Assembly (NCBI GenBank): GCA_963775755.1
Contig: CAVZKB010000001.1
Coordinates: 80,011 to 144,010, forward strand
Origin: an uncultured Actinomycetes bacterium
Lineage (GTDB): Bacteria; Actinomycetota; UBA4738; HRBIN12
DNA length: 64,000 nt
Reading direction: 5' to 3'
The notes beneath the pieces are model-generated. The model ran no database searches. It was not told where the DNA came from and saw only the letters and a program-made list of their open reading frames with translations. Each line of letters starts with the position of its first letter. Position 1 is the first letter of the stretch. Position numbers and translations under genes: made by a program. Of this stretch, positions 541 through 35,740 are shown one piece after another.

Positions 541-562
541 TGACGCCGCGACTTCGGAGGTT

Positions 563-3344: not shown

Positions 3345-3384
3345 CGGCGCAGGTCAGCGTAGCATCCGGCCGGTCACCGGCCGC

Positions 3385-5252: not shown

Positions 5253-5327
5253 GGTGGGACCTCGAGGAGGGACCGGGACGACAGGAGTCTACCTGGGCGC
5301 CCTACGCGGGCCCCTGGCCCGCCCTCG

Positions 5328-14124: not shown

Positions 14125-14779
14125 TGCCGGGGGTCGTCGTGTGGCGGGCGAGGTACGCGGCGGCTTCCGCGCGGCGCGCGACCTCGAGCTTGGACAGGAT
14201 GCTGGAGACGTAGTTCTTGATCGTCTTCTCCGCCAGCTTGAGCTCCTCCCCGATCTCCTTGTTGGTCCGGCCGTCGGCGACCAGTGCCAGGATGCGCTCC
14301 TCCTGCGGCGAGAGACGGGCGAGCTTCTCGTCGTTCATCAGATGTTTGCCCTTGCGGAGCCGATCGAGGACGGACTTGGTCACCGCCGGATCCAGAAGGC
14401 TCTCCCCGGCGCCCACGGCGCGGATCGCACGCAGCAGGTCGTCCGATCGCACCTGCTTCAAGACGTAGCCCGAAGCCCCCGCCATGATCGAAGCGAACAG
14501 CGCCTCGTCGTCGGCGAACGATGTGAGCATCAACACCTGCGTCTTGGGGTGCTTCGCGCGGATCTCCCTGGTCGCCTCGATCCCGCTACCGTCGATCAAG
14601 CGGACGTCCATCACGACCACGTCCGGGCGCGTGCGGTCCGCCTCATCGATCGCATCGTGCACGGAACCGGCCTCGGCCGTCACGACGATGTCGTCCTGCG
14701 ATTGGAGCATCGCTCGGATGCCGTCCCGCACGATCTGATGGTCGTCGACCAGCATCACTCGCAGCGGTGGTTGCTTCAT
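14114..14779 (-). CDS. NarL/FixJ family response regulator (REC + LuxR-type HTH)
   Basis: MLVDDHQIVRDG...DVVVMDVRL...; C-terminal LSPQEERILALVADGRTNKEIGEELKLAEKTIKNYVSSIL. Confidence 0.9.
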   Translation of the reverse strand: MKQPPLRVMLVDDHQIVRDGIRAMLQSQDDIVVTAEAGSVHDAIDEADRTRPDVVVMDVRLIDGSGIEATREIRAKHPKTQVLMLTSFADDEALFASIMAGASGYVLKQVRSDDLLRAIRAVGAGESLLDPAVTKSVLDRLRKGKHLMNDEKLARLSPQEERILALVADGRTNKEIGEELKLAEKTIKNYVSSILSKLEVARRAEAAAYLARHTTTPGSVE

Positions 14780-14789
14780 AGGGGCAATG

Positions 14790-15290
14790 CTAGTCGGCGG
14801 TTGCAGGGGCGTCCCGCGCCTCGTCCATATCCGTCTCGGCGCCGAGCATGAGGGCGTCGGCGACCCGGTCGAGGAAATCCTTGAGGGTGGCCTCCGCGAT
14901 CCGGTACAGGACGGTGCGGTCGATCGCGTGGCCGATCGGACCGAGCGGAGGGACGTAGCGGGCGCTCATGGCGAGCTGCGTCCGGTTCGATCCCAGCGCC
15001 GCCACTTCGAGATCGGCCTCCAGCGCGGGGAAGAGCCCTGCCGCACCGGTCGGCACCCATCGGAGCGGCATCACCGTCTTGCCCCGTGTGTGGACGGGGT
15101 CCCCGAGCTCGATCGCGACCTGACGCGCCACGCGGACCCGTCCGCCGAACCCGACGTCTGCGAGGAGCATGTCACCGCGGTAGTTGGCCTCGCTGGCCAG
15201 CCCTGGGAGCCAGTCCGCCGGGGCACGCGCCAGCGCGCGTTCGATCGATTGCGGCCCGATGGGAAGCTCGACGAAATAGCGCGCGAACAT
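14790..15290 (-). CDS. hypothetical 166-aa protein between histidine kinase and response regulator (start at internal ATG, MFARYFVELPIGPQ...)
   Basis: Upstream part of track ORF 14790..15731 is Ser/Arg-rich junk; downstream 166 aa have balanced composition; possibly SRPBCC-like fold (inference only). Confidence 0.45.
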   Translation of the reverse strand: MFARYFVELPIGPQSIERALARAPADWLPGLASEANYRGDMLLADVGFGGRVRVARQVAIELGDPVHTRGKTVMPLRWVPTGAAGLFPALEADLEVAALGSNRTQLAMSARYVPPLGPIGHAIDRTVLYRIAEATLKDFLDRVADALMLGAETDMDEARDAPATAD

Positions 15291-15372
15291 GTGTCGATCG
15301 TCGCAGGCCACGGTGCGCTTCGCCGGGGCCGTTCGACCCGGACACGTCAGGACGGTCGGCCCCCGCCTGACG

Positions 15373-16515
15373 TCACAGCGGCAGGACCGCGCGAACGGTG
15401 GTGCCCTCCCCCAGGCTGCTCGTGATGTCGAGCGAACCGCCGAGTGACGCGACTCGGTCGCGGAGGTTCCCGATACCGAGGCCCTTCCCGCCGGTTCCGG
15501 GCTCGAAACCGCGGCCGTCGTCGTCGATCTCCAGGATGGCCCCCTCCACGCCCCTGCGGAGCGACACGCGACAGGTCGTGGCCTCGGCGTGCCGGCCGAC
15601 GTTCGAAAGAGCTTCTCGCGTGACCTGCACCACATCAGAGGCGATCGAGGCGAGCTCGGCGGCGACCGCTTGGTCGATGTCCACCACCGTGACCACCCCC
15701 GAACGCTCCTCGAACTCGGCGCCGAGCTCACGCAGCGCCTGACCCAACTGGCGATCGGCCAAGATCCCGGGCCGCAGTCCGAAGATGTAGTTGCGCAGAT
15801 CGCGTATCGCGTCGTCGATGTCCTCGACCGCGCCCTCGATCCGTCCTGTGATCCCCTCGTCCTGTGCCATCGCGGCGGCGCCTTGCAGACTCATGCCGAC
15901 GGCGAAGAGCGACTGGATCACGCCGTCGTGAAGCTCCTTCGCGATCCGCTCGCGCTCGTCCATGACCTCGAGTCGGCGGATCTCGTCTTGGGCCCGGAGC
16001 ATCTCGTCGTACAGGCGCGCGTTCTCGACCGCCACCCCCGCCTGCGTGGCCAGCACCTGGAGCCCGCGCTCATCATCGATCGAGAACTCATCCGCCCCTT
16101 GCTTGTCGGTGACGTAGATGTTCCCGAACACCTTTCCCCGGGCGACGATGGGCGATCCGAGGAGCGAGTGCATCGGCGGGTGATGGGGTGGGAACCCGAC
16201 CGACTTGGGGTGGGCGGAGAGGTCCTTGAACCTGAGCGGACGAGCCTCGGAGATCAGCAGACCCAAGATCCCGTGGCCGGTCGGAAGGTCGCCGATCTTG
16301 GCTCGATCCTCATCGGTGATCCCCTGGGTGATGAACTCCTCGATGCTCCCATCGGGGCCCAACACGCTGATCGCGCCGTACCGAGCCGCGGTGATGCCGA
16401 CCGCCAACTCGACGATGCGATGCAGGATGGCGATGAGCGACCGCTCCGGAGCCAGAGCCAAGCCGGCCTCGATCAACAGATCGGCCCGATAGCGATCCTG
16501 CAACCCGTCGGCCAC
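15373..16515 (-). CDS. GAF-domain sensor histidine kinase (HisKA_3 + HATPase_c), NarL-partner type
   Basis: GAF region (…YGAISVL…GILGLLISEARPLRF…), H-box ELHDGVIQSLFAV, G-boxes DDGRGF / GKGLGIGNLRDRV. Confidence 0.85.
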   Translation of the reverse strand: MADGLQDRYRADLLIEAGLALAPERSLIAILHRIVELAVGITAARYGAISVLGPDGSIEEFITQGITDEDRAKIGDLPTGHGILGLLISEARPLRFKDLSAHPKSVGFPPHHPPMHSLLGSPIVARGKVFGNIYVTDKQGADEFSIDDERGLQVLATQAGVAVENARLYDEMLRAQDEIRRLEVMDERERIAKELHDGVIQSLFAVGMSLQGAAAMAQDEGITGRIEGAVEDIDDAIRDLRNYIFGLRPGILADRQLGQALRELGAEFEERSGVVTVVDIDQAVAAELASIASDVVQVTREALSNVGRHAEATTCRVSLRRGVEGAILEIDDDGRGFEPGTGGKGLGIGNLRDRVASLGGSLDITSSLGEGTTVRAVLPL

Positions 16516-16565: not shown

Positions 16566-16579
16566 GGGTCTTTGGACCC
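16566..16579. promoter_or_regulatory. GGGTC-N4-GACCC palindrome 50 nt upstream of the kinase start, candidate NarL-family (DosR-like) autoregulatory box
   Basis: perfect 5-4-5 inverted repeat gggtctttggaccc in the 310-nt divergent intergenic region. Confidence 0.3.
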
Positions 16580-16825: not shown

Positions 16826-17320
16826 ATGCGCGTGATGGTCGCGTGCGCGAGCAAGCACGGTTCTACCGAGGGGATCGCCCAGGCCATCGCGGAGCGGTTG
16901 CATCAGCTCGGCCATGAGACCGTGGCGGTGCGCGTATCGGACGTCACCGACCTCCTCGGCATCCAGGCGATCGTCCTCGGGAGCGCGATCTATGCCGGTT
17001 CGTGGATGAAGGAGGCAACCGAGTTCGCGAAGGCCCACGCCGAGACCCTTTCGGCCATGCCGGTGTGGCTCTTCAGCAGCGGGCCCCTGGGCACGGAGAT
17101 CGAGGACGAGGAGGAGCAGCCGCGACAGCTCGCGGAGCTCAGGGAGACGCTCCGGCCGAGGGCCCATCGCATGTTCTTCGGCAAGATCGACCGCAGCGCC
17201 CTCGGGTTCGGCGAGCGGATGATGATGAAGGCCGTGAAAGCGCCCGAGGGCGACTTCCGCGACTGGAGCGCCATCGCCGGATGGGCGGACGAGATCGCAG
17301 AGGAGCTCGAAGGTCCCTGA
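16826..17320 (+). CDS. flavodoxin-like domain protein
   Basis: MRVMVACASKHGSTEGIAQAIA... flavodoxin-like FMN-binding loop. Confidence 0.65.
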   Translation: MRVMVACASKHGSTEGIAQAIAERLHQLGHETVAVRVSDVTDLLGIQAIVLGSAIYAGSWMKEATEFAKAHAETLSAMPVWLFSSGPLGTEIEDEEEQPRQLAELRETLRPRAHRMFFGKIDRSALGFGERMMMKAVKAPEGDFRDWSAIAGWADEIAEELEGP

Positions 17321-21858: not shown

Positions 21859-22197
21859 ATGGCGGTCGATCAGCTCAGCGAGACGTTCTCCGCCCTCGCG
21901 GACCCCACGCGCCGGGCGATCCTCGCCCGTCTCGCCCGGGGTGAGGCGACGGTCGGCGAGCTGGCCGAGCCGTTCCCGGTAAGCCTCCAGGCGGTTTCGA
22001 AGCATCTGAAGGTCTTGGAACGGGCCGGGCTGATCGCCCGTGGCAAGACCGCGCAATGGCGACCGTGCCGTTTGCGCGCCGCGCCGCTCGGAGACGCCAC
22101 CGACTGGCTGCAGGACTACCGGCGGTTCTGGGAAGCGAGCTTCGACCGACTCGACGACCACCTACGACAGATCCAGGAAGGAGCGAGCCATGAGTGA
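21859..22197 (+). CDS. ArsR/SmtB family transcriptional regulator
   Basis: LADPTRRAILARLARGEATVGELAEPFPVSLQAVSKHLKVLERAGLI winged HTH. Confidence 0.9.
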   Translation: MAVDQLSETFSALADPTRRAILARLARGEATVGELAEPFPVSLQAVSKHLKVLERAGLIARGKTAQWRPCRLRAAPLGDATDWLQDYRRFWEASFDRLDDHLRQIQEGASHE

Positions 22198-22711
22198 TGC
22201 GACACCCGCCGAAGGTGTGGTCTCCGCCCACAGCGATGCGGAGGGGATCCTGATCGTCCGGGTGTTCGACGCGCCACGCGAGCTGGTCTTCAAAGCGTGG
22301 ACAGAAGCCGAGCGCTTCGCGAAGTGGTTCGGCGAGCACGGTTCGAGCATCCCGTTGGACAAGGTGTCGATGGACCCCCGTCCGGGCGGCGCATGGCACG
22401 CCACGATGATCTACGGCCCGGACGAGGTGGAGCTCCCGTTCGCCGGCACGTTCCTGGAGGTCGTGGAGCCCGAGCACGTCTCGATGTCGCTCGTCGATCC
22501 ATCCGATCCCGACCACGACGCCTTCGAAGTGCTCACCGCCGACTTCAGAGACCTCGGCGATGGGCGGACGGAGATGACGTTCACCCAGCGCGGCGGAAAC
22601 CTCCCGGCCGACGAGTACTCGCGGGCGATGCGCGGCTCGCTCATCTTCTTCGATCGGATGGCGGAGCATCTCGCCGAGAGCCTGAAGTCGAGACACGATT
22701 CCGATCCGTGA
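22190..22711 (+). CDS. SRPBCC / Aha1-like (activator of Hsp90 ATPase homolog) domain protein, co-transcribed with arsR (8-nt overlap)
   Basis: ...LIVRVFDAPRELVFKAWTEAERFAKWFG... AHSA1 signature; typical ArsR partner. Confidence 0.75.
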   Translation: MSDATPAEGVVSAHSDAEGILIVRVFDAPRELVFKAWTEAERFAKWFGEHGSSIPLDKVSMDPRPGGAWHATMIYGPDEVELPFAGTFLEVVEPEHVSMSLVDPSDPDHDAFEVLTADFRDLGDGRTEMTFTQRGGNLPADEYSRAMRGSLIFFDRMAEHLAESLKSRHDSDP

Positions 22712-22791: not shown

Positions 22792-23325
22792 TCAGATGAA
22801 GAGCGTGATGGCGTCCTTCGCCTCGAGGAGGGCGCTGGTCGCGCCGGCTGGGTCTTCGAGTCCCTCGATGAGGTCCTCGCGGGCCAGGCCGAGCAGGTCC
22901 ATCGTCATCTGACACGGGATGAGCCGGACGCCCATGTCGCGGGCGGTCTCGAGCAGCTCCGTCGGGCTGGCGACCTTGTGATCGGTCGCGAGCTTCTTCA
23001 TCATCGCCGGCCCCGCACCGAGGAACTGCATCTTGCTGAGCTTCAGATGGTCGGTGCCGCCACGGTTCATCGTCGACAGCATCTTCTGCATCCAGTTCTC
23101 ACCCGTGAGGCGAACCTCGTTCTTCACCAGCGGGAACAGGCCCCAGAACGTGAAGAACACCGTCGTCTGCATCCCCATCGCGGCGCCGCTCGTCGCGAGG
23201 ATCAACGTCGGCCACATGCGGTCGAGCTCGCCGCTCCATGCGAAGATCACCAGCTTGTCGGGCAACGCCTCTTCGACCGCGTCGGCGGCCGTGGTCTCCT
23301 CGGTCAGTTCGGTCATCTTGCTCAC
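22792..23325 (-). CDS. DsrE/DsrF-like sulfur-relay family protein
   Basis: DsrE-fold conserved Cys region (…IPCQMTMDLLG…), 177 aa. Confidence 0.6.
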   Translation of the reverse strand: MSKMTELTEETTAADAVEEALPDKLVIFAWSGELDRMWPTLILATSGAAMGMQTTVFFTFWGLFPLVKNEVRLTGENWMQKMLSTMNRGGTDHLKLSKMQFLGAGPAMMKKLATDHKVASPTELLETARDMGVRLIPCQMTMDLLGLAREDLIEGLEDPAGATSALLEAKDAITLFI

Positions 23326-23555
23326 CTCTTCCGGATGAGGAAGCGGAAGACGTCCGCCTCCGCTGTTTGCTCCACGAGCTCATTACCGGTCGCCTTGCAC
23401 CATGCGGTGAAATCCGGGACGGAGCCGGGGTCGGTCGCGTATGCCTCGATCAGCTCACCCGAGGCCAGCTCCTTGATCGCCTGGGCGGTCTTGACGATCG
23501 GCATGGGGCACGACAGCCCCTTCAGGTCCAATGACTTCGCGATCGCGACACTCAT
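23322..23555 (-). CDS. TusA-like sulfurtransferase (77 aa); start at internal ATG
   Basis: LDLKGLSCPMPIVKTAQAI CPxP motif; ATGA overlap with dsrE. Confidence 0.8.
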   Translation of the reverse strand: MSVAIAKSLDLKGLSCPMPIVKTAQAIKELASGELIEAYATDPGSVPDFTAWCKATGNELVEQTAEADVFRFLIRKR

Positions 23556-24718
23556 CGCTTGCTCCTTCCGGTCGACGGCAGCTCCGGGATCCGGCCCTGC
23601 GGGATCGTCTGCCAATAGAGGCGGTTGAACGTCCATTTCGCCATGTGCCAGGCCCGAGAGGGCTGAGGCGGGGTCGGCGGATGCTCGTAGTCGAACCGGA
23701 GCGCCGTGGCCCGTCCGTCCCCTGTCTCGAGGAAGCACATGACCCGGCCGCCGTAGTTCTCCTTCGGTGCCGTGCCGCGCACGAGGGAAGCGATGCGGCT
23801 CGCGACCACCGGGGCCTCGAAATGCGCGGTCGAGCCGCTCTTGGAGATCGGAAGGTCGGTCGCGTCGCCGATCCCGAAGATCCGATCGTTGCCACCGACC
23901 TGCAAGGTGGCTCGATCGGTCGGAAGCCATCCCGACATGTCGCCGATCCCGGAATCCTCGATCACGTGCTGACCGCGGTGCGGCGGGACGACGACGAGCA
24001 GGTCGTAGTCGGCCTTCTCCCCCTCGAGAGAGGTCACGACCCCGGCGCTCGGGTCGATCGACTCGACGTTGAAGAACGTGGAGAGTCCGATGTCGCGCCG
24101 CTCCATGATCGGCTGGATCAGCTTCGAGGCGGATTCGATCGTGAACGCCCGGTTCAACGGCGAGAGCAGCGTGACCTCACTGCGCTCCCGGATGCCGCGC
24201 CGGCGCAGCTCCTGATCGAGCATGAGCACGAACTCCACGGGCGCCGGCGGGCACTTGTACGGGATCCCGCCGATCCCGACCAGGATCCGGCCGCCGCGGA
24301 AGCGCCGCAGCTCCTCGCGCAGCCGCTGCGCGCCTTCGAGCGAATAGAACTCCTGCGCACCCTCGACCATCCCGGGAACCTGCGTCGGCACGAGCCGGGC
24401 GCCCGTCGCGACGACGAGGTAGTCCCAATCGAGGCTCCCTCCGCGTTCGAGCTGGACGGTCCGTGCGTCCGGATGGATCCTGACCGCCGGCTCGACGACG
24501 AGCTCGACGTCCTTGCGGAGCAGCGTGCGCTCGTCGCGCGTGAGCCACCGCCCGTTCGCCTGACCGAGCGCGACGTACAGGAACCCCGGCTGGTACATGT
24601 GCATGCCGCTGGGATCGACGACCGTCACCTTGGCGGAACGGCCGAGCGCCTTGGACACCAGGTTCGCCGCAAGGGTCCCACCGACCCCGCCCCCCAGGAC
24701 TACGACGCGCGCCGGCAT
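23552..24718 (-). CDS. sqr: sulfide:quinone oxidoreductase (FAD-dependent, SQR family)
   Basis: N-terminal FAD fold VVVLGGGVGG, catalytic YKCPPAPVE motif and C-terminal Cys (VMCFLETGDG). Confidence 0.7.
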   Translation of the reverse strand: MPARVVVLGGGVGGTLAANLVSKALGRSAKVTVVDPSGMHMYQPGFLYVALGQANGRWLTRDERTLLRKDVELVVEPAVRIHPDARTVQLERGGSLDWDYLVVATGARLVPTQVPGMVEGAQEFYSLEGAQRLREELRRFRGGRILVGIGGIPYKCPPAPVEFVLMLDQELRRRGIRERSEVTLLSPLNRAFTIESASKLIQPIMERRDIGLSTFFNVESIDPSAGVVTSLEGEKADYDLLVVVPPHRGQHVIEDSGIGDMSGWLPTDRATLQVGGNDRIFGIGDATDLPISKSGSTAHFEAPVVASRIASLVRGTAPKENYGGRVMCFLETGDGRATALRFDYEHPPTPPQPSRAWHMAKWTFNRLYWQTIPQGRIPELPSTGRSKR

Positions 24719-24722
24719 CAGA

Positions 24723-24965
24723 TCACCGAGCCTTCTCGATGACGAACCGCGCGAACCCCTCTTGCTGATCCACCTCGGCGAGCCGATGGCCGGCCTTCGA
24801 TACCCAAGCGGGGATGTCGGTCTTCGAACCCTCGTCGCTGGAGATCACCTCGATGATGTCTCCAACCGTCCCTTCGCGGATCGCGCCGATCAGCGCCATC
24901 AGGGGGCCGGGGCACGGCATCCCCCGCGCGTCGATGCTCCGGGTGATGTCCGATGTCGTTGTCAT
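24723..24965 (-). CDS. TusA-like sulfurtransferase (80 aa); start ATG 24965 with AAGGAGGA RBS
   Basis: IDARGMPCPGPLMALIGAI CPxP motif. Confidence 0.8.
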   Translation of the reverse strand: MTTTSDITRSIDARGMPCPGPLMALIGAIREGTVGDIIEVISSDEGSKTDIPAWVSKAGHRLAEVDQQEGFARFVIEKAR

Positions 24966-24981
24966 CGTTGATCCTCCTTCG

Positions 24982-25389
24982 TCAGATGAACGTCGGCGAT
25001 CCGGCGGCTTCGAGGAAGAACGACGCAACGCCCTCCTGCCCGTCGATGAGCGGATCGAGGTTCTCCGTGACGAGGCCGAGCATCTCCATCGAATGCGAAC
25101 ATGCGTGGATGCTCACCTCGCCGATCTGCTTCGCCTGCTGGAGGGTCTCGCTCCAGTGTTGGCCGCCCTGACGCTCCATCGCCGCGCGCCCTTCGTCACC
25201 GGACTCGGGAGCCGCGCCGTGGTCCTTCAGGATCCGGTCGGCCCGGAATGCATCGAGCGCCCAGTACTGGACGAGGATGTGCACCTCCCGACCCATGGCC
25301 GCGGCGCCCGCCACCAAGATGGCTGCGGCGCTGAGCTTGTCGTCCGTCCCCGAGAACAGGACGAGGGAAAACGTGTCGGTCTCGCTCAT
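24982..25389 (-). CDS. DsrE/DsrF/DsrH-like family protein
   Basis: 135 aa, DsrE fold with conserved Cys (SIHACSHSMEMLG). Confidence 0.6.
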   Translation of the reverse strand: MSETDTFSLVLFSGTDDKLSAAAILVAGAAAMGREVHILVQYWALDAFRADRILKDHGAAPESGDEGRAAMERQGGQHWSETLQQAKQIGEVSIHACSHSMEMLGLVTENLDPLIDGQEGVASFFLEAAGSPTFI

Positions 25390-25516
25390 GCGTTCCTCCT
25401 TGAGTCACTCCCCGTGAGCTTGTCGGAGGGCGCTACGCACGGCATGAGGCGTCCGACCCTGCGTTCGAGGGCCGCATGTCCTTGCGAGAGGAGAAACCCC
25501 GTTCGCGACGGCTGGT

Positions 25517-26254: not shown

Positions 26255-26595
26255 GCCGTTCACCCCTTCGAGGACGATGCATCGTCCTCCGACACCAGCG
26301 TGCGCTCGTGGACGACGGACTGGCCCGGGTCTTCGGACCCGCGGTCGAGGGGACCCACGACCCTGCGCCGGCATCATCCGCCATGGCGTCGGCGCACGGT
26401 ATTCGGCAGGTGGCCCCGACGCGCGACACCTCGGCGCAGGTGGACCCGGTTCGGCAGCTGGCCCCATCGACGGTCCGGCCAGAACCTCCGCCCCATCGCC
26501 TGGATGAAGCTCTTCGTAGGTCTCATCCAGTCTCCCTCCTTCGCCGGGCCGGGCGCCGTCTGACGAGGATCGACGCCCGGTCTCCGACGAGCTTG

Positions 26596-28294: not shown

Positions 28295-28774
28295 CTATGC
28301 GGCCTCGACGTGCGGCGTCGTGACCGCGATCTCTCTCACGGGTGGAGCCTCGAGCTTGGTGATGGGCTCGGGGACGACGACCTGAAGGACCCCGTCCTCG
28401 TAGGTGGCCGTGATCGTAGACTCGTCGACCCCGTCGGGGATCGGGATCCGCCGCTCGAAGGCACCGTAGGCGCCCTCCATCCGGTAGTAGGTTCCTTCCT
28501 CGACCTCTTCCTCGTGACGGCGCTCGCCCTTGATCACGAGCTCGCCGTTCTCGACGGCGACCCGAACGTCCTTCGCCGGGTCGATCCCCGGGAGCTCGAC
28601 CCGCACGACGAAGTGCTCGTCGCGGACCAAGACGTCGACCGCCGGTACGAACGGGCGTTGCACGAACAGCGGCAACGCGGGGTACGCGAGCCGTGCGCGA
28701 TTGCCGAACACGCTGTGCAGCACCTCATCCATCCGCCGCTCCAACGTGCCGATCTCCTCCCAGTAGCCACGCAT
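28295..28774 (-). CDS. Hsp20/alpha-crystallin small heat shock protein; likely start MRGYWEEI
   Basis: alpha-crystallin domain (…FVVRVELPGIDPAKDVRVAVENGELVIKGER…AFERRIPIP…). Confidence 0.85.
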   Translation of the reverse strand: MRGYWEEIGTLERRMDEVLHSVFGNRARLAYPALPLFVQRPFVPAVDVLVRDEHFVVRVELPGIDPAKDVRVAVENGELVIKGERRHEEEVEEGTYYRMEGAYGAFERRIPIPDGVDESTITATYEDGVLQVVVPEPITKLEAPPVREIAVTTPHVEAA

Positions 28775-28908
28775 CGTGACCACCTCCCTGGAGCGCTTCG
28801 CTCCGAGCCCACCGTAGGTCGGGGCGTCTGGGATCACCACGGGCGTGGGGCCCGCGTCGTCCGGGTCGAGGGTCCCCTTAAGCCGGGACCGGTGCGAACA
28901 GGGACGGA

Positions 28909-29922
28909 GTGCCGGTGCGCGATCCCGCCTTCACGGTCGCGTCGGGCGCCGCGGCTACCATGGGCGACATGGCGCGCATGTTCGTCGAGGGATGGGCCCC
29001 CGAGTACGGGGCGCCGTTCGATCCGGACGAGCAGCTGGCGCCCGCCGAGGGAACCATCGATGCGACCGTCGAGCTGATGGACTGGGAGCCCCTCGAGGGC
29101 GCCGATGACGGCGCCGATCGGATCGCGTTCGTCGACGGCGTGCGCCGCGTGGACGCCCGCCTCCTGATGGACGACCCAGCCGGTGGCCCGATCCCCGGGA
29201 TCTGCGGGACGTTCGCGGTGGGCGCGACCCTTTGGCACCGGACGCAGCGCCGGTCCGAGATCACGAGCGTCCGGGTCGAACGGTGGGCGGTCCTGGCGGG
29301 CGGCCGCGTCGAAGAGCTGCCGGCTGTTGACCTGGATCCGCCGTACCGCTCCACGACCACGCCGTCAGACGATCCTTCGCATCTGATGACGGAGCTCCAC
29401 ACCCGGATGCGCCGAGCGGAGGGCGAGCTGGCGACGCAACTCGCCGACGGCGCGTTCGTGGTCGCCGACGGTCCGCTCAACAAGCCGCTCGCGCCGCTGC
29501 CGGTCGTCGGCTATATCAAGAGCCATCGCGTGACGTACCTGCCGCTCGAGCAGAACGCCGTCGTCGCCGAGCTCGCCCGTGGACAACGCACGCCGTTGTT
29601 CACGATCTCGGCCGATCGGCCCGACGTGTCTCGCTACTCGTGGTACGTGCGCCTCGCGATGTTGCGCGGCGGCCACTCGTGGACCGGCATCGTCCGGTGC
29701 GAGGCCTCGGGCCGCCTGCCGACGGACGAGGTCCGCGTGATCGCCGACCGCACCGCGGCGCTCCTGCCGATCGTGGGCTCGGAGCCGCACATCGATCCCC
29801 GCGCACCGCAGAACCTGGTGCCGATCGGCGCGCTCGAGCGCGAGCTGCGTCATCGCATGGGCGACCAGGGCTTGGTCTATCGCGCTCTCCGTCAGGCAGT
29901 CAGTGAGCGCGAGGCATCGTAG
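28909..29922 (+). CDS. nurA: NurA-like 5'-3' nuclease (RNase H-like fold)
   Basis: NurA catalytic motifs IAFVDGVRR and FVVADGPL (hhxDGS pattern), about 330 aa, located immediately upstream of HerA-like ATPase. Confidence 0.6.
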   Translation: MPVRDPAFTVASGAAATMGDMARMFVEGWAPEYGAPFDPDEQLAPAEGTIDATVELMDWEPLEGADDGADRIAFVDGVRRVDARLLMDDPAGGPIPGICGTFAVGATLWHRTQRRSEITSVRVERWAVLAGGRVEELPAVDLDPPYRSTTTPSDDPSHLMTELHTRMRRAEGELATQLADGAFVVADGPLNKPLAPLPVVGYIKSHRVTYLPLEQNAVVAELARGQRTPLFTISADRPDVSRYSWYVRLAMLRGGHSWTGIVRCEASGRLPTDEVRVIADRTAALLPIVGSEPHIDPRAPQNLVPIGALERELRHRMGDQGLVYRALRQAVSEREAS

Positions 29923-30275
29923 AGATCACCTCGGCCCTCGCTCATCCGATTTCCCAGCATCGTCCGGGTGTGCATACGGCTCGTGCACGACGGTCCACTA
30001 CAAGTCGGCCACCCGGGCTCACATCGAGTCGTTGGGATACGACATCGTGGCCAATTCGGCGACCAGTTCAGCGACCTGGTCGGCGGGTTCGCGACCGCAC
30101 GTTCAAGATGCCCAACCCGAACTACTTCCTGCCCTAGACGGTCCACGGTCGAGCGCTCCCCGGGGCTCTGCGGACGAACGCGGGTCCGCAGCCCGGGGGC
30201 GTCCGACGGCGCGGCTACGATACGCCCCATGGGGTGGTGCACGATCGTCGTGGGGTTCATCGACGAGGACGACCG

Positions 30276-32012
30276 ATGACCGGCGACGGCGTCGGACGGG
30301 TCCTCGGCTCGGAGCACTCGAACACCAGCGAGTTCCGCGTGGTGCTCGACGACGACGAGTACCTCCAGCTCGACGACCTCATCGTGGTGCGGACCCAGGT
30401 CCCGAAAGCGGGCGAGGTCGCCACATACGGCGTCGTGACCGAGGCCGAATCGGTCTACGAGGGCGCCTCGTATGAGTCCGACACGCATCGGGTCGCCGAG
30501 CTCGGCATCATGCCCGCCGCGAAGGTCCGTTCCGCGCGCGTGGCCGTGACCCGCGTCGATCCCGAGATCTGGGTCTCGCCAGATCCGGGCGAGGTCGTGC
30601 AACGCGCCACCGGCGAGGAACGCTCGAAGGCGCTGTACCTGGACGAGATGGGCAGGCCGCTCCCGATCGGGATCGGTCGCGACGGCGAGCCGGTCTCCGT
30701 CGACCTCGACTTCTTCGACGGCCGCAAGGGCGGCCACATGTCGATCAGCGGCATCAGCGGCGTCGCGACCAAGACGTCGTTCGCCCTGTTCTTCCTGCGG
30801 ATGCTCACCGGGCATCCGGGCGTGGTCGGCGAGGGCGCGTCCAACCTCCGCGTGCTGGTGTTCAACGTGAAGGGCGAAGACCTCCTGTGGCTGGATAAGC
30901 CCAACCGGTCCTTCGACGACGAGGCCGCGGCCGGCTGGGCGGTGCTCGGCGTCGAGCCCGGACCGTTCCCGTCTGTGCGGTTCTGGGCGCCGCCCAGGAG
31001 ACGTTCCGGCGACGTCGTCGTGCCCGACACCGGCGGGCGGCAGGAGGGTGTCGACGTCTTCAGCTGGACGCCTCGCGAGTTCGTCGACGAAGACTGCCTG
31101 CAGTTCCTGTTCACCGATGCGAACGACTCGAAGAACCAGATCCCGTTCGTCCGCGAACGCGTGCAGTCGCAGTTGAAGCGGTTCTCCGTCGACGTCGTGG
31201 GGATGCCTGGTGCGGTCGTGCTCCGCGACCCGCGCGACGCGCCCGACGGGAGCTGGCGTGGTCAGCAGGTCCAGGCGCAGCCCGGCGAGCGGATCGTCAC
31301 CGACCTGCTCACGCTCGTCGGCGCGCTCGGCGAGTTCCTGGAGCCCGAGGACGGCTCGGAGCCGGACTGGGCGTGGAGCGGGCGCGTCATGGGCGGCACG
31401 ATCTCCGCGTTCATGCGAAGGCTGCACGCCGGCGCCGCACGGATGGGCCAGTTGGTCAGGGCCGGCGAGAGCCGCCGCATCGATCGTTCGAAGGCGAGCG
31501 TGACGGTCGTCGCGATCCAGTCGTTGCACGATCAGGCACAGCGGTTCGTGGTCGGTGCGCTGCTGAACGAGGCGTTCCGCGAGAAGGACGAGTCCGGGCA
31601 GCGCCTGCCCCTGTCGGTCGTCGTGCTGGACGAGCTCAACAAGTACGCCCCGCGCGAAGGCACCGGTCCCCTGAAGGACATGCTCGTCGACATCGCGCAA
31701 CGCGGGCGGTCGCTCGGGATCCTGCTCGTCGGCGCGCAGCAGACGGCCTCGCGCGTGGCATCCGAGGTCTTGGAGAACGCCGCCATCCGCGTGAGCGGCC
31801 GCCTGGACGCCGCCGAGGCCGAGCGCGCCGAATACGGCTGGATGCTTCCCTCCACACGCGCTCGAGCCCGGCTGTTGAAGCCCGGAACCATGGTCGTGTC
31901 GCAGCCGGCGATCCCCGTGCCGCTCGTCGTGACGTTCCCGTTCCCGCCGTGGGCCACCAGGAAGGAGGAAGTGGCGACGGACGCCGACGGCGATCCGTTC
32001 GCGGGGCTGTGA
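30276..32012 (+). CDS. herA: HerA-like FtsK/HerA-superfamily hexameric ATPase/helicase; start ATG 30276
   Basis: N-terminal HAS-barrel (GRVLGSEHSNTSEFRVVLDDDEYLQLDDLIVV), central P-loop region (HMSISGISGVATKTS, atypical), Walker B VVVLDELNKY, C-terminal arm. Confidence 0.6.
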   Translation: MTGDGVGRVLGSEHSNTSEFRVVLDDDEYLQLDDLIVVRTQVPKAGEVATYGVVTEAESVYEGASYESDTHRVAELGIMPAAKVRSARVAVTRVDPEIWVSPDPGEVVQRATGEERSKALYLDEMGRPLPIGIGRDGEPVSVDLDFFDGRKGGHMSISGISGVATKTSFALFFLRMLTGHPGVVGEGASNLRVLVFNVKGEDLLWLDKPNRSFDDEAAAGWAVLGVEPGPFPSVRFWAPPRRRSGDVVVPDTGGRQEGVDVFSWTPREFVDEDCLQFLFTDANDSKNQIPFVRERVQSQLKRFSVDVVGMPGAVVLRDPRDAPDGSWRGQQVQAQPGERIVTDLLTLVGALGEFLEPEDGSEPDWAWSGRVMGGTISAFMRRLHAGAARMGQLVRAGESRRIDRSKASVTVVAIQSLHDQAQRFVVGALLNEAFREKDESGQRLPLSVVVLDELNKYAPREGTGPLKDMLVDIAQRGRSLGILLVGAQQTASRVASEVLENAAIRVSGRLDAAEAERAEYGWMLPSTRARARLLKPGTMVVSQPAIPVPLVVTFPFPPWATRKEEVATDADGDPFAGL

Positions 32013-32046: not shown

Positions 32047-33216
32047 ATGAAGATCCTCCACACGTCGGACTGGCACATCGGCAAGAGGCTCGGCCGTCAC
32101 GAGCGGATGGACGAGTTCCACGATGTCCTCGCAGAGGTCGAAGGCATCGCCGACGAGCACCGCGTGGACCTGGTCATCGTCTCCGGCGACGTGTGGGATC
32201 GGCCCGTCCCACCGACGGATGCGCTCGCCCTCGGCCTCCAGACGCTCCTGCGCCTGGCGGTGCGCCGCCCGGTGATCGCCGTGGCCGGGAACCACGACTC
32301 CCCGGAGTTCTTCGAGGCGCTCGCGCCGCTGCTGCGCCCCCTCGGGGTCCACTTGGTCGGCAACGTGTATCGCCCCGACGACGGTGGGATCATCGGACCC
32401 GACGAGCTCGGTGGTCTCCCGGTGGTCGTCGCGTGTTTCCCGTTCCTGCGGGAGGGACGGGTGGTCGACTTCATGAAGGACGCCGGCGAGTGGTACCGGG
32501 GGTACGCGGATCGCATCGCGGCGATCACCGGCCACTACAACGAGGAGCTCGTCAAGCGCGCAGGCGCCGACCTGGTGCCGATCCTCGTCGCGCATTTCCT
32601 CGTGAACGGTGTGAAGGTCGACCGCGAGGCCCCGCGCGGGGAGCGCGAGCTCCACATGGGAGATGCGTACGCCGCGACCCCGCAGGCCATCCCGGCAGGT
32701 CCTCAGTACGTGGCGATGGGACACATCCACGCGCCGCAGCGGGTGCCGGGCTCACCGGTGCCCGCGGAGTACGCGGGCTCGTTGTTGGCGCTCGACTTCG
32801 GAGAGGCCGGGGAGCAGAAGCGGGTCGTGCTCCTCGACGCCGAACCGGGACGGCTCGCGGTCGCGGAGAGCGTGCCTCTTCGGAGCGGGCGCCGGCTCGT
32901 TCGGGTCAACGACACGTGGGACGCGATCGAGGCGCGCGCCGACGAGCTCGCGGGGGCGTTCCTCGATCTCACCGTGAAGACGAGTGGCACGGATATGTCG
33001 CTCGCGGAGCGGGCGCACGAGACGTTCCCGTTCCTGGTCCGGGTACGCGCGCAACGACCCCTCGGTGCCGATCGCGAGCGGCTCGCGAAGGGCCATCGTT
33101 CGTGGGAGGAGCTGTACGCGGAGTACTACCGGCGCGAGCATGACGAGGACGCTCCCGGCGATCTGTTGACCCTCTTCCGCGAGGTGCTCGAGGAGGCCAC
33201 CGATGCGACCGCTTGA
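32047..33216 (+). CDS. sbcD: SbcD / Mre11-family DNA-end nuclease (calcineurin-like phosphoesterase)
   Basis: MKILHTSDWHIG, …IVSGDVWD…, …AGNHD…, …GHIHAPQ… metallophosphatase motifs I-V. Confidence 0.85.
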   Translation: MKILHTSDWHIGKRLGRHERMDEFHDVLAEVEGIADEHRVDLVIVSGDVWDRPVPPTDALALGLQTLLRLAVRRPVIAVAGNHDSPEFFEALAPLLRPLGVHLVGNVYRPDDGGIIGPDELGGLPVVVACFPFLREGRVVDFMKDAGEWYRGYADRIAAITGHYNEELVKRAGADLVPILVAHFLVNGVKVDREAPRGERELHMGDAYAATPQAIPAGPQYVAMGHIHAPQRVPGSPVPAEYAGSLLALDFGEAGEQKRVVLLDAEPGRLAVAESVPLRSGRRLVRVNDTWDAIEARADELAGAFLDLTVKTSGTDMSLAERAHETFPFLVRVRAQRPLGADRERLAKGHRSWEELYAEYYRREHDEDAPGDLLTLFREVLEEATDATA

Positions 33217-35740
33217 GCTGACCCTGGAGGGGTTCCGCTCGTATCGCGAGCGGGTGACGTTCGACTGGCGCGGCCGGCGGCTGGTGGGGATCGTGGGCCC
33301 GATCGGCTCCGGGAAGTCGTCGATCCTGGACGCGGTCTCGTTCGCGCTCTACGGCAAGACCCCGCAGGTGGAGAGCGCCACGAAGTCACTGATCCACCAG
33401 CTGGCCGAGCAATCGCACGTCGAGCTGCGGTTCCAAGTGGACGGCCAGGTCTGGCGAGCGGTGCGATCGCTCCGCCGCAAGGGCGCGTCCGGCCATCAGC
33501 TTTCGCTGCTCGCAGACGACACGCCGGATGCGGCGACGCTCGAGGTCGTCACGCTCGAAGGTCCGATGAACGAGCGCATCGAGCAGCTGCTCGGCATGGA
33601 CTTCAAGACGTTCTGCCGCTCCGTGCTCCTGGCACAGAACCGCTTCGCCGAGTTCCTCAAGGCGACGCCCACGCAGCGGGACGCGGTCCTGAAAGGGGTG
33701 TTCGGGTTCGAGCGGCTCGACGACGCGCTCCGCGTGGCCCGGTGGCACCTGGAGCGAGCCGATCTGGAGCTCGCGTCCCTGCAGAAGGAGCGCGAGCGCG
33801 TGGACGAGGCGCGCATCGAGCTCGGCCAGGCTCGCGAGGCGGCGGAGACCACCCGCGCCCGATCGACCGCGCTCGAAGCCGCTGGACCCGAGGTCGAGCG
33901 GCTCGAGAAGGAGCGCGACGCCGCCGCGGGAGAGGCCGAGACCTCGGCCGCTCGGATCGGCGCGTTGACCGAGATCGCGGGGGGGCTGCCGTCGGAGGCG
34001 GACGTTCGTTCCGTGGTCGAGTCCGCGCTCGAGGCGGGAACCAGGATCGCCGCAGCCAAAGCGGCCGCCGATGACGCGGAGCGGGACAGGCGGGCACGTG
34101 AGGCCGAGCTGGCCGACGTGGCATCGCGTCTGGGCGACCGCGAGCGCTTCCGTTCGTTCGAACATCTGGTGCAGACCCACGAGCGGCAGGTCGAAGCGGT
34201 GCAGGCCACCGGTGTCGAGGTGGAACGCATGGACGAGGAGCTCGCCTCCGCGCGCGCCTCGCTGGAAGAACGGTCGGCGGCGGGCAAAGACGCCGAGGAC
34301 GCGCTCGACGCCGCCGACCGAGCCCTGGCCGGCGCCCTGGTCGCCGTCGAAGATGCGCGGAAGGCGTTGATGGACGCCGCGCATGCGGAGATGGCGCACG
34401 AGCTCCGTTCGACGCTCATCGCCGGCGAGCCGTGCCCGGTCTGCCGGCAAGAGGTCCATGCCGTTCCCAGGGCCGGGGCCGCGCCCAAGGTCGCGGCCGC
34501 GCGGAAGGCGCTCACCAAGGCGGAGAAGGTCGAGGCGACCGTTCGGGCCGACAAGGAGCGGTGCGCATCGACCGGAGCGTCGATGCGCACCGCGATCGCG
34601 GAGGCGGAGAGCCGCATCGGGAAGGCGGAGGCCGACCGAGCCCGGGCGGACACGGCGCGGGCAGCCGTCGAGGCCGACCTCGCCGCCACCAAGAGCCAGC
34701 TGATCGAAGGACTCCACGGAGAGGGTGACTTCCGCTCCCTCTTCGAGGCCCGGCAAGCAGAGCTGACGGCCGCGGAGCGCGCGTTCGAGCAGGCTCGCAC
34801 GGCTCTCGAGCTGACCCGCGCGGGAGTCGAGGAGGCGGAGCACCTCGCCGAGGGAGCGGGCGAGGCGATCGCCGCGATCGCCAACCGGTTCTCGGGACTC
34901 TGGGGACGTCTCGACGAGGATCGAGACGTCCCGCGGGACCCCGACGCGATCACGGCGTCGTTCTCGGAGCTCCGAGCGACGATCGTCGCGCGCCACGACG
35001 AAGCGGTCGCGACGCGCGAGACGGCGAGCGCCAGGGTCGACGAGGCGAACGAGGCGCGCTCCGCCCTGCTGGCAACGGTCGGACTCGCTCCCGCCGACGA
35101 TTTCCGGCGGGCGCTCGCGGAAAGCGCCATGGCCCACGGGACGGCGACCGCCCACGTGCAGCAGCTGGAGGAGCGGATCGCATCCGCGAGCGAGCTCGAA
35201 CGCCAGGTGATGGTGTGCGAGGCACGCCGCGCCGTCGCGAAGCGGCTCACCGACGACCTTCAGCCGTCGCGCTTCTTGGGCTTCCTCCTGCGGGAGGAAC
35301 GCGCAGAGCTTGCGGAGCTCGGGAGCGATCACTTCGCAGAGCTGAGCGACGGCGCCTACCGGTTCACCGACGACGATCGCTTCGACATCCTCGACCTGAA
35401 CGCCGCGAGCACGAAGCGGAAGGCCGACTCACTCTCTGGTGGGGAGACGTTCCTGGCGTCGTTGGCGCTCGCCCTCGCGCTGGCGGAGATGGTCGCGCGG
35501 GGTGGTGGTCGGCTCGATTCCTTCTTCTTGGACGAAGGCTTCGGGAGCCTCGACCCCGAGCACCTCGACCGGGCGATGGATGGCATCGGGCGCCTGGTCT
35601 CCGAGAACGAACGCCGCCTCGTCGTGGTCGTCAGCCATGTGGCCGAGATGCGCGAGGCGATCGAAGACCTCATCGTCCTCGAGAAGGACGACGTCACGGG
35701 CGACACGGTGGTTCGATCCGGCGTTGGCCCCGCTGCGTGA
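33203..35740 (+). CDS. sbcC: SbcC / Rad50-family ATPase with coiled coil and zinc hook
   Basis: Walker A GPIGSGKSS, long coiled coil, zinc-hook CPVC, ABC signature LSGGETFLASLALALAL, D-loop FFLDEGFGSLD. Confidence 0.9.
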   Translation: MRPLELTLEGFRSYRERVTFDWRGRRLVGIVGPIGSGKSSILDAVSFALYGKTPQVESATKSLIHQLAEQSHVELRFQVDGQVWRAVRSLRRKGASGHQLSLLADDTPDAATLEVVTLEGPMNERIEQLLGMDFKTFCRSVLLAQNRFAEFLKATPTQRDAVLKGVFGFERLDDALRVARWHLERADLELASLQKERERVDEARIELGQAREAAETTRARSTALEAAGPEVERLEKERDAAAGEAETSAARIGALTEIAGGLPSEADVRSVVESALEAGTRIAAAKAAADDAERDRRAREAELADVASRLGDRERFRSFEHLVQTHERQVEAVQATGVEVERMDEELASARASLEERSAAGKDAEDALDAADRALAGALVAVEDARKALMDAAHAEMAHELRSTLIAGEPCPVCRQEVHAVPRAGAAPKVAAARKALTKAEKVEATVRADKERCASTGASMRTAIAEAESRIGKAEADRARADTARAAVEADLAATKSQLIEGLHGEGDFRSLFEARQAELTAAERAFEQARTALELTRAGVEEAEHLAEGAGEAIAAIANRFSGLWGRLDEDRDVPRDPDAITASFSELRATIVARHDEAVATRETASARVDEANEARSALLATVGLAPADDFRRALAESAMAHGTATAHVQQLEERIASASELERQVMVCEARRAVAKRLTDDLQPSRFLGFLLREERAELAELGSDHFAELSDGAYRFTDDDRFDILDLNAASTKRKADSLSGGETFLASLALALALAEMVARGGGRLDSFFLDEGFGSLDPEHLDRAMDGIGRLVSENERRLVVVVSHVAEMREAIEDLIVLEKDDVTGDTVVRSGVGPAA

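Follow-up and report, generated by a model that had tools for sequence, protein, structure and literature searches.

A conserved five-gene operon unites a predicted type III-like sulfide:quinone oxidoreductase with putative TusA- and DsrE-like sulfur carriers

Introduction

Where does the sulfane sulfur go once a sulfide:quinone oxidoreductase (SQR) has oxidized its substrate? The physiological acceptor of bacterial and archaeal SQRs, especially of the little-studied type III enzymes, has been an open issue for about a decade, and so has the role of DsrE2- and DsrE4-type proteins, only one of which, DsrE2B of Metallosphaera cuprina, has been tested in vitro and proved inert. Both questions are raised by a locus of an uncultured Actinomycetes bacterium, contained in a stretch of 64,000 nucleotides of contig CAVZKB010000001.1 that was analysed here as a whole (hereafter the window). 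Five tightly spaced open reading frames (ORFs) on its minus strand fill positions 22792-25389, in the order dsrE-short, tusA-1, sqr, tusA-2 and dsrE-long, such that an SQR gene is bracketed by genes for TusA-like and DsrE-like proteins. An original prediction made from this DNA had interpreted the arrangement as a persulfide relay feeding or draining the SQR reaction, and its palindromic gene order as the trace of a module duplication.

Our results suggest, with moderate confidence, that the SQR oxidizes sulfide and hands the resulting sulfane sulfur to the first TusA protein, from which it would pass to the DsrE-like proteins and the second TusA protein. They also show that the mirror-like gene order is only one of two arrangements of a conserved cassette.

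Results

Organization and conservation of the cassette

The operon begins with dsrE-short (24982-25389), which encodes a protein of 135 amino acids (DsrEs) with a PF13686 (DrsE_2) domain and a single cysteine, C97. It is followed on the same, minus strand by tusA-1 (24723-24965; 80 amino acids; PF01206; motif C18-P-G-P), the type III-like sqr (23552-24718; 388 amino acids; PF07992 and NF049943; K-C-P-P-A-P at residues 155-160), tusA-2 (23322-23555; 77 amino acids; PF01206; motif C16-P-M-P) and dsrE-long, whose product (DsrEl; PF13686; single cysteine C138) comprises 177 or 174 amino acids, depending on whether the gene extends from 22792 to 23325 or to 23316. The first three genes are separated by 16 nt and 4 nt, sqr and tusA-2 share an ATGA overlap, and tusA-2 and dsrE-long either overlap (GTGA) or lie 5 nt apart. 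Shine-Dalgarno-like strings (AGGAGG or GGAGG) lie 5' of dsrE-short, tusA-1 and tusA-2. Two metagenome contigs of the Joint Genome Institute (JGI) carry identical SQR copies in the same gene neighbourhood, and the gene callers applied there chose the 174-residue form of dsrE-long, with the ATG at 23316 as its probable start. The DNA of the window is rich in GC (66-73%), and the three operon ORFs long enough to pass the filter show a strong third-position GC bias (0.87-0.93).

Upstream of dsrE-short, a spacer of 127 nt (25390-25516, minus strand) extends to a cytidylate-kinase-like gene and presumably serves as a promoter or read-through region. Our scans of this spacer detected neither a sigma-70-like promoter nor an inverted repeat, and the three terminator-like matches were all on the wrong strand, with none on the minus strand. 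An Rfam search of the region upstream of the cassette in the window and six relatives returned no family.

To collect related loci, a 9-sequence SQR alignment was run against GTDB species, each represented by a single genome. This gave at least 600 matches, including 597 confirmed relatives, the best 80 of which were analysed; in total, 84 loci were compared by searching their six-frame ORFs with the five window proteins. All five orthologue groups occur together in approximately 72 of the 84 loci, in two gene orders and within unrelated flanks. Because the same groups cluster in so many related loci with several phylum labels, their association is far beyond chance, and the five genes constitute a real operon, in agreement with the original prediction, whose gene coordinates, single-strand arrangement, gaps of at most 16 nt and ATGA overlap were all confirmed. 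Three long contigs whose SQRs show 79-92% identity hold exactly these five genes, again with unrelated flanks. The window order is found in 30 of the 84 loci, plus two truncated or ambiguous ones, most of which are assigned to Actinomycetota or Dormibacterota by their bin labels and a few to other groups, and a second order, dsrEs-tusA2-dsrEl-tusA1-sqr, in 36 loci plus four truncated or frameshifted ones, mostly labelled Chloroflexota or Limnocylindria; since the bin labels of metagenome-assembled genomes (MAGs) may be wrong, this phylum breadth is to be read in terms of labels only. Six loci have the reduced version dsrEs-tusA1-sqr, and four have tusA1-sqr alone, including three from Chloroflexus (C. 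islandicus, L044, and two Chloroflexus sp. MAGs).

Two adjacencies are constant among these arrangements. The tusA1 gene lies directly 5' of sqr in all 82 loci that include the respective upstream DNA, and tusA2 is located immediately 5' of dsrEl in both gene orders, so that the two genes move as a pair. The units of the cassette are thus [dsrEs], [tusA2-dsrEl] and [tusA1-sqr]. An exception is locus L020, where sqr and tusA-2 form a single ORF of 468 amino acids (5001-6407) in a long-read MAG. A database search with the fused sequence retrieved only unfused proteins, one of them 97% identical, and the fusion is probably a long-read indel or assembly error that does not recur.

The order seen in the window is literally a mirror, and each half combines the same two Pfam families, as would be expected if one DsrE-TusA module had been doubled to give two redundant copies. 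The sequences argue otherwise. TusA1 and TusA2 are only 36% identical, DsrEs and DsrEl only 23%, and the paralogues differ in length as well as in their invariant residues. Across the loci, median identities amount to 54-60% within groups and 25-31% between groups, and the best-hit assignment always matches the position in the operon, with each copy forming an orthologue group that spans loci labelled as different phyla. Moreover, the parts are paired differently in the roughly 40 loci with the second order. For these reasons, we give the proposed duplication almost no credence. The two TusA and the two DsrE copies represent old, distinct orthologue groups, and the mirror order is one of two ways of arranging them.

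The flavoprotein

The product of sqr matches PF07992 (Pyr_redox_2) over residues 4-289 (69.6 bits), and the GxGxxG motif of its Rossmann-type binding site for flavin adenine dinucleotide (FAD; G9-G14) is invariant in 84 orthologues. By a wide margin, its top NCBIfam model is NF049943 (E = 3.6e-104, positions 4-376 of 388), although the score of 349 bits stays below the curated cutoff of 525. This model, named 'type III sulfide quinone reductase, selenoprotein subtype', was built for the selenoprotein subtype, belongs to the 'exception' class and is the sole type III model in the library. The best matches in the PDB are human SQOR (6e-40), Aquifex SQR, the SQR-like protein 3H8I from Acidianus and the flavoproteins of flavocytochrome c sulfide dehydrogenases.

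The only two cysteines of the protein, C156 and C328, are conserved in all of the 84 sequences. C156 (PYKCPPAP) aligns with the cysteine in the PVKCAGAP motif of human SQOR, and C328 (GRVMCFLETG) with that in GYTSCPLVTG. They are equivalent to the canonical catalytic pair of type III enzymes, named Cys159 and Cys339 (PMC13047784). A search for signal peptides and transmembrane segments was negative for SQR (maximum Kyte-Doolittle value 1.43), as it was for the other four operon proteins, and all five are therefore expected to act on the cytoplasmic side. Close to its C terminus, where amphipathic helices would mediate the monotopic membrane binding of a type III SQR, the protein contains an aromatic-rich stretch, AWHMAKWTFNRLYWQTI, and K361, N365 and Y368 are conserved in all sequences. 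Judged from these similarities, the central flavoprotein is of the SQR type and type III-like. Its relatives are numerous: of the candidates scored, 5131 reach E <= 1e-20, and metagenomes hold thousands of close relatives, most of which are either nameless or carry the JGI label 'sulfide:quinone oxidoreductase'.

The Pyr_redox_2 fold is shared with CoA-persulfide and CoA-disulfide reductases and with type II NADH dehydrogenases (NDH-2), and a carrier-rich operon that lacks a persulfide dioxygenase (PDO) could in principle serve to dispose of persulfide. One might thus envision a quinol- or NAD(P)H-dependent persulfide or polysulfide reductase, or an NDH-2-like enzyme, that removes sulfane sulfur instead of generating it. 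However, the matches to NDH-2 and CoA-disulfide reductases (1e-9 to 1e-2) are at least 30 orders of magnitude weaker than those to SQRs and are confined to the N-terminal Rossmann part, no second dinucleotide-binding domain was matched at cutoff, and the two cysteines are present and spaced as in an SQR. In addition, the reduction of sulfane sulfur by menaquinol is thermodynamically uphill. A reductive or other non-SQR function is therefore very improbable, and an identity as NDH-2, which the original prediction had named as the competing assignment, can be ruled out (approximately 1e-7 to 1e-9 for NDH-2, compared with 6e-40 for human SQOR).

The carrier proteins

Both small TusA-like proteins are clear members of PF01206, scoring 77.6 bits (TusA1) and 84.3 bits (TusA2) at a cutoff of 28.6. 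In 82 TusA1 orthologues, C18, P19 and G20 are invariant and P21 is conserved to 99%; D12, S42, D44, G46-S47, D50, P52, W54, K57 and K78 are likewise fully invariant, with R14 and H60 at 99%. Among 70 TusA2 orthologues, C16, P17 and P19 are invariant, and a second cysteine, C53, is present in just 39%. At 40.0 and 53.4 bits, TusA1 and TusA2 both miss the threshold of the E. coli-type TusA equivalog NF001423 (78 bits); they belong to the TusA-fold carriers, yet are not orthologues of the TusA protein involved in tRNA thiolation.

The two DsrE-like proteins match PF13686 with 49.9 bits (DsrEs) and 146.5 bits (DsrEl) at a cutoff of 25, and the best solved match for either of them is PDB entry 2QS7, which corresponds to SSO1126, called DsrE2B (PMC11094781). 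DsrEs aligns with 2QS7 over its full length (E = 5e-20, 75 bits), placing C97 opposite the 2QS7 cysteine. DsrEl contains an insertion of approximately 40 residues relative to DsrEs, which splits its alignment with 2QS7 (65 bits) into two pieces, and aligns continuously with 3PNX (Swol_2425); its C138 coincides with the cysteines of both solved proteins. C97 is conserved in all of 73 DsrEs orthologues, and the same is true for P137-C138-Q139-M140 in 68 DsrEl orthologues, in which G103, G105 and M108 are also invariant. Hence, the active-site cysteine whose possible loss the original prediction had raised as a concern is kept in both proteins, and the presumed active-site cysteines of all five products are fully conserved (68-84 orthologues per gene). 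An AlphaFold2 model of DsrEl (mean predicted local distance difference test score, pLDDT, of 70) has a confident core and a poorly modelled insertion; in it, a strand (131-135) ends at the cysteine and is followed by a helix (136-142). Searched with Foldseek, this model retrieves 3PNX, 2QS7, 3MC3, DsrEFH and YchN.

Several known subgroups were considered for these proteins. The DsrE2 equivalog NF047629 (cutoff 210) is reached neither by DsrEl (77 bits) nor by DsrEs (18.6 bits), and either protein has a single cysteine instead of the two that are strictly conserved in DsrE2A (PMC4175335), arguing against an Allochromatium vinosum-type DsrE2/DsrE2A identity. A membrane-anchored DsrE2 is excluded by the lack of a transmembrane segment in DsrEs and DsrEl. 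The Cys-X7-Cys motif that defines DsrE3A (PMC4175335) is missing, and the DsrE3A-type structure 3MC3 matches DsrEl weakly (27 bits) and DsrEs not at all, such that the analogy to DsrE3-TusA carriers drawn by the original prediction does not hold. DsrE4 proteins are defined by their being encoded downstream of SQR (PMC4175335), which applies to DsrEl in the window order, yet not in the second order. Taken together, DsrEs and DsrEl appear to be DsrE2-like and not DsrE3 proteins, and their match to 2QS7 suggests a putative link to DsrE2B, the prototype of which is Mcup_0682. In public annotations, the carriers are merely listed as 'peroxiredoxin family protein' or 'DsrE/DsrF/DrsH-like'.

The same features bear on the form in which sulfur might travel. 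If SQR combined its sulfane sulfur with sulfite, an acceptor that human SQOR can use, the TusA and DsrE proteins could carry Cys-S-SO3- groups, leading to protein-bound or free thiosulfate. In Metallosphaera, DsrE3A has indeed been shown to pass thiosulfonate on to TusA (PMC4175335). However, apart from their dissimilarity to 3MC3, DsrEs and DsrEl lack the DsrE3A-defining motif, the more closely related DsrE2B bound neither thiosulfate nor tetrathionate (PMC4175335), and no thiosulfate:quinone oxidoreductase (TQO/DoxDA), TsdA, YeeE or sulfite-forming enzyme is encoded nearby. A thiosulfonate relay thus appears quite improbable.

Regulators and domain fusions in related loci

In four relatives, the cassette is accompanied by a divergently oriented gene of the CsoR family (PF02583, 78 bits), located at 3906-4200 in L014, 3872-4171 in L016, 3894-4160 in L018 and 3919-4212 in L019, and a further CsoR-family gene lies on the same strand as the cassette in L067 (1304-1585). 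All encoded proteins show a Cys-x29-Cys arrangement without histidine; in the four divergent cases, glutamine takes its place four residues before the second cysteine, which we take to be the pattern of a persulfide sensor (CstR) rather than a copper sensor. In L014, L016 and L018, the intergenic region between regulator and cassette contains palindromes of the TACCCC(N2-4)GGGGTA type (TACCCCGGGGGGTA, TACCCCCCTGGGTA or TACCCCCCAGGGTA; L014 4192-4205, L016 4190 and L018 4212), with a variant in L019. Together, gene and palindrome look like a CstR-type persulfide sensor and its putative operator, a combination that the window lacks.

A different type of regulator is associated with the second gene order. 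In approximately 30 of these cassettes, the gene immediately 5' of the cassette, in the same orientation, encodes an ArsR/SmtB-family protein (for instance, L046 2892-3287, L039 2308-3378 and L055 2821-3321), and the DNA just 5' of its start codon is also conserved. A cysteine near the C terminus is kept in all of these regulators, and a second one, immediately preceding the 'HP' of helix 2, is limited to four upstream regulators from loci labelled Chloroflexota and to the homologous proteins encoded downstream of sqr in two Nitrososphaerales loci (L040 6035-6463 and L063 1313-1678). With 55-63 bits against a cutoff of 155 for the BigR model, these ArsR/SmtB-family regulators are not BigR equivalogs. 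Both regulator families, CsoR and ArsR, count sulfur sensors among their members.

Two more distant SQR relatives, drawn from the representatives of 50%-identity clusters related to the window SQR, are fusion proteins. P0166 (581 amino acids) and P0205 (562 amino acids) are 35-38% identical to the window SQR, retain both catalytic cysteines and end in a DsrC/TusE-like domain (PF04358, 71 and 87 bits) with the terminus PKPRGCV or PKPVGCI, which corresponds to the carrier arm and its acceptor cysteine. In the literature searched, a fusion of SQR to DsrC/TusE has not been described. Such a covalent link between a type III-like SQR and a sulfur-accepting protein of the Tus/Dsr relay directly supports the idea that these enzymes use protein acceptors.

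Proposed sulfur relay

In the pathway that we favour, the type III-like SQR would sit peripherally on the membrane, facing the cytoplasm, and oxidize H2S at C156 and C328, passing two electrons via FAD to the quinone pool and retaining the sulfane sulfur. TusA1 would then take over this sulfur as a persulfide on Cys18, avoiding both the release of free polysulfide and the loading of a small thiol. From there, sulfur may move onward via Cys97 of DsrEs, Cys138 of DsrEl and Cys16 of TusA2, with TusA2 acting as the cognate partner of DsrEl, to a downstream acceptor that would be encoded outside the cassette. The process could serve in sulfide detoxification, in electron gain or in both, with reactive sulfane sulfur kept bound to protein.

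What the enzyme does, in which direction and order sulfur is transferred, that TusA1 accepts it directly and what the pathway is for are all inferred from sequence, by applying known SQR chemistry and the TusA-to-DsrE hand-over to this locus on the grounds of family membership, invariant cysteines and synteny. In other systems, sulfur transfer from TusA to DsrE has been demonstrated (PMC11094781), and rhodanese partners of SQR are known to hold down the accumulation of sulfane sulfur (PMC9163753). A protein persulfide relay coupled to SQR gains comparative support from the conserved synteny, the sulfur-sensor-type regulators in relatives and the SQR-DsrC fusions. These data favour the relay proposed in the original prediction, and the sequence alone is compatible with its feeding as well as with its draining SQR.

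Several points weigh against this pathway. Apart from the shortfall of SQR against its best family model, its AlphaFold2 model, computed with 16 close homologues, was too poor to be used (pLDDT of 53, with values below 40 at the C terminus), so that the attachment to the membrane is presumed. DsrEl and TusA2 are accessory, as ten loci make do with tusA1-sqr or dsrEs-tusA1-sqr. The main caution comes from DsrE2B of M. cuprina, the nearest DsrE type to have been characterized, which was inert in vitro with all sulfur donors tried and took nothing from TusA or DsrE3A (PMC4175335); the DsrE-like proteins may thus be something other than simple carriers. The 38 non-operon ORFs scanned, which cover approximately 0.6-55 kb of the 64-kb window, include no gene for a PDO, a rhodanese, TauE/SafE or a sulfite exporter, nor did they reveal sHdr, Dsr, Sox or thiosulfate enzymes. 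Given that neither PDO, rhodanese and sulfite exporter nor sHdr and Dsr are found among them, the pathway has no visible end. As stated in the original prediction, no gene for a sulfur- or persulfide-sensing regulator adjoins the operon in the window. The locus consequently does not match the SQR-PDO type of detoxification operon (cst, yrk or sqr-pdo), in which SQR is under the control of CstR, SqrR or FisR and whose partner families (PDO, rhodanese and TauE-type exporter) are absent from the scanned ORFs. Finally, the support for this clade comes from sequence comparison.

A missing oxidative end-enzyme (PDO, sHdr or Dsr) would also fit an assimilatory scheme, in which the TusA persulfide made by SQR mainly feeds the synthesis of molybdenum cofactor (Moco), thionucleosides, Fe-S clusters or low-molecular-weight thiols, with the four carriers serving different biosynthetic clients. 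In E. coli, TusA is known to carry sulfur for biosynthesis (PMC4175335), and two distinct TusA/DsrE pairs could supply two destinations. However, both TusA proteins fall short of the E. coli TusA equivalog (40 and 53 versus 78 bits), no genes for Moco synthesis, tRNA thiolation or Fe-S assembly are linked to the cassette in the window or in loci L001-L003, the regulators beside the cassettes of relatives are of stress-sensor and not of biosynthetic types, and a related operon, the only one with expression results, is induced by toxic H2S. We consider it unlikely that assimilation, rather than detoxification or respiration, is the purpose of the cassette.

Candidate operators and a possible link to hypoxia

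A GC-rich palindrome, GGGNC-N4-GNCCC, is over-represented upstream of dsrEs in loci of the Actinomycetota type. Sequences with at most one mismatch to GGGACNNNNGTCCC are present in 6 of 29 upstream windows (-150 to -40), compared with 0.55 expected from dinucleotide shuffles, and those with at most two mismatches in 16 of 29, compared with 5.3; none of 300 shuffles reached either count, which is not a clean probability, since the loci are related. Directly 5' of dsrEs, the window has a weak site, AGGACATGCGGCCC, at -93, with two mismatches to GGGACNNNNGTCCC. In the 64 kb, the only two exact GGGTC-N4-GACCC sites are located at 26327-26340, 73-86 nt 5' of the cytidylate-kinase-like gene on the cassette strand, and at 16566-16579, upstream of an operon for a GAF-histidine kinase and a NarL-type regulator (14114-16515). 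Sites of the GGGNC-N4-GNCCC type were also noted at 26350-26363, 28863-28876 and 25469-25482 of the window, at 4234 in L015, at 5264 in L001 and at approximately -118 from dsrEs in L013.

The core of the palindrome resembles the DosR box of Mycobacterium tuberculosis, TTSGGGACTWWAGTCCCSAA (PMC2275270). Two features speak against a function as an operator: wherever the case is clear, purines dominate the sense strand of its 4-nt spacer, and a third perfect copy (10612) lies between convergent genes. Because of them, an RNA hairpin is an equally good reading, and the palindrome provides a lead towards either a DosR-box-like candidate operator or such a hairpin. NCBIfam gave no DosR or DevS name to the pair at 14114-16515, only generic NarL/MadR/MctR-like scores below cutoff.

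Genes of the stress or dormancy type are repeatedly found around the cassette. They encode universal stress proteins (USPs), the GAF kinase and NarL-type regulator, flavodoxin-like proteins and Hsp20, as well as an S30AE hibernation factor, a DUF1918 protein, a CBS protein and a P-type cation ATPase, and are distributed over positions 10085-10537, 14114-16515, 16826-17320 and 28295-28840 of the window, 2188-3823 and 9377-12124 of L001, and 1-3532 and 8443-8925 of L002. USP, Hsp20, S30AE, DUF1918, CBS and P-type ATPase proteins are types also known from the DosR regulon of mycobacteria.

It is tempting to go one step further and speculate that the cassette is a distinct and widespread enzyme system with TusA1 as an obligatory acceptor, which would make the enzyme in effect a quinone-reducing sulfide:TusA sulfurtransferase that releases no free polysulfide, and that the cassette is maybe part of a DosR-like hypoxia or dormancy regulon in uncultured soil Actinomycetota. 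Two non-redundant DsrE2-like proteins and TusA2 may then route the sulfur, with thiol persulfides never being formed. This more specific proposal is possible but, in our estimation, doubtful. If true, sulfide oxidation would belong to the low-oxygen survival programme of these soil bacteria.

Genomic neighbourhood

The genes flanking the operon are of housekeeping or stress types and include those for an aconitase, a thioesterase, an ArsR-AHSA1 pair, the cytidylate-kinase-like protein, an amino-acid permease, Hsp20 and SbcCD. The arsR gene (21859-22197, plus strand) overlaps the AHSA1/SRPBCC gene by 8 nt and converges on the end of the operon. It was rejected as the operon regulator: apart from its orientation and its coupling to AHSA1, it is absent from L001-L003, of which L001 is the closest relative, and its product has a BigR score of 23.8 bits (cutoff 155) and only one cysteine, as stated in the original prediction. 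The pair as a whole (21859-22711) sits between the cassette and a gene for a hypothetical protein of 252 amino acids. L001 shares the flank formed by the hypothetical, thioesterase and aconitase genes, where it has a P-type ATPase gene instead of the ArsR-AHSA1 pair, indicating that the surroundings of the cassette are being reshuffled.

Four long ORFs of the window show good coding bias and no Pfam match: 28909-29922, 30234-32012, 35903-39139 and 620-2155 (337, 592, 1078 and 511 amino acids, respectively). An SbcD/SbcC-like pair (32047-35740) lies between two of these ORFs, and an ORF of 578 amino acids in L001, also without a Pfam match, again adjoins SbcD. Another ORF (11380-14124), adjacent to the two-component system, encodes a protein of 914 amino acids that combines a GNAT acetyltransferase with a module similar to ADP-forming acyl-CoA synthetases (CoA_binding, Succ_CoA_lig and ATP-grasp_5), an architecture typical of Pat-type protein lysine acetyltransferases.

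Discussion

The cassette described here is compact and strongly conserved, has many relatives and is not attached to any other sulfur enzymes, and for these reasons it offers a clean system for reconstituting the transfer of sulfur from SQR to carrier proteins and for addressing the function of DsrE2 and DsrE4. Its distribution suggests that many uncultured soil bacteria of the Actinomycetota, Chloroflexota and Dormibacterota are able to oxidize sulfide. Since a linkage of SQR, TusA and DsrE has already been published for two organisms, the advance is incremental. Beyond these two cases, our literature search, which included few subscription journals, returned no report on the five-gene cassette, its gene orders or its spread among soil phyla.

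The first of the two is Methylacidiphilum fumariolicum SolV, whose type III sqr-tusA-dsrE2 operon (MFUM_v2_0219-0221) is upregulated approximately 1.7-fold in sulfide-adapted cells and has been proposed to oxidize H2S to S0 (PMC10205796). Compared by gene description, it resembles the sqr-tusA2-dsrEl half of the cassette. It differs in that three genes were reported, without an upstream dsrE-short and tusA-1, and in that its host is a verrucomicrobial acidophile and not an actinobacterium. The second case is the 'sulfur island' of M. cuprina, in which tusA (Mcup_1722), sqr (Mcup_1723) and dsrE4 (Mcup_1724) follow each other (PMC4175335). Here, too, a TusA gene precedes and a DsrE-family gene follows a putative SQR gene; however, the organism is an archaeon with one TusA and one DsrE protein in this cluster, and the comparison with DsrE4 is one of gene position.

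Cytoplasmic hand-over of cysteine persulfides between TusA and DsrE-fold proteins is also the common theme of the Rhd-TusA-DsrE2/DsrEFH-DsrC relay of A. vinosum and of the TusA-DsrE3 cascade that leads to sHdr in Hyphomicrobium denitrificans, and tusA-dsrE2 gene pairs are common (PMC11094781). Whereas these relays start at a rhodanese and end at DsrAB or sHdr-LbpA, that of the window would be attached to SQR, and the ORFs scanned include no genes for rhodanese, Dsr, sHdr or LbpA. Moreover, the DsrE proteins of the cassette have one cysteine, as opposed to two conserved cysteines in DsrE2A and the Cys-X7-Cys motif of DsrE3A.

The cst system of Staphylococcus aureus (cstR, tauE, cstA, cstB and sqr) and the yrkD-E-F-H-I-J...sqr-pdo region of Bacillus licheniformis likewise link SQR to TusA and DsrE homologues, namely YrkI and YrkE, which are fused in CstA, and to a CsoR-family persulfide sensor (PMC9918477), paralleled by the CsoR-family genes of L014, L016, L018 and L019. 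In contrast to the cassette and the ORFs scanned, the firmicute systems use a type II SQR and always include a rhodanese, a PDO and TauE.

Another solution has been found in Cupriavidus pinatubonensis, where SQR is fused to a rhodanese (DUF442) domain (PMC9163753). This enzyme is again a type II SQR and works with glutathione and PDO, whereas the partners encoded in the cassette are separate proteins and have no linked PDO. What the two systems share is a dedicated sulfurtransferase partner that controls the sulfane sulfur of SQR, which is the logic that we propose for TusA1.

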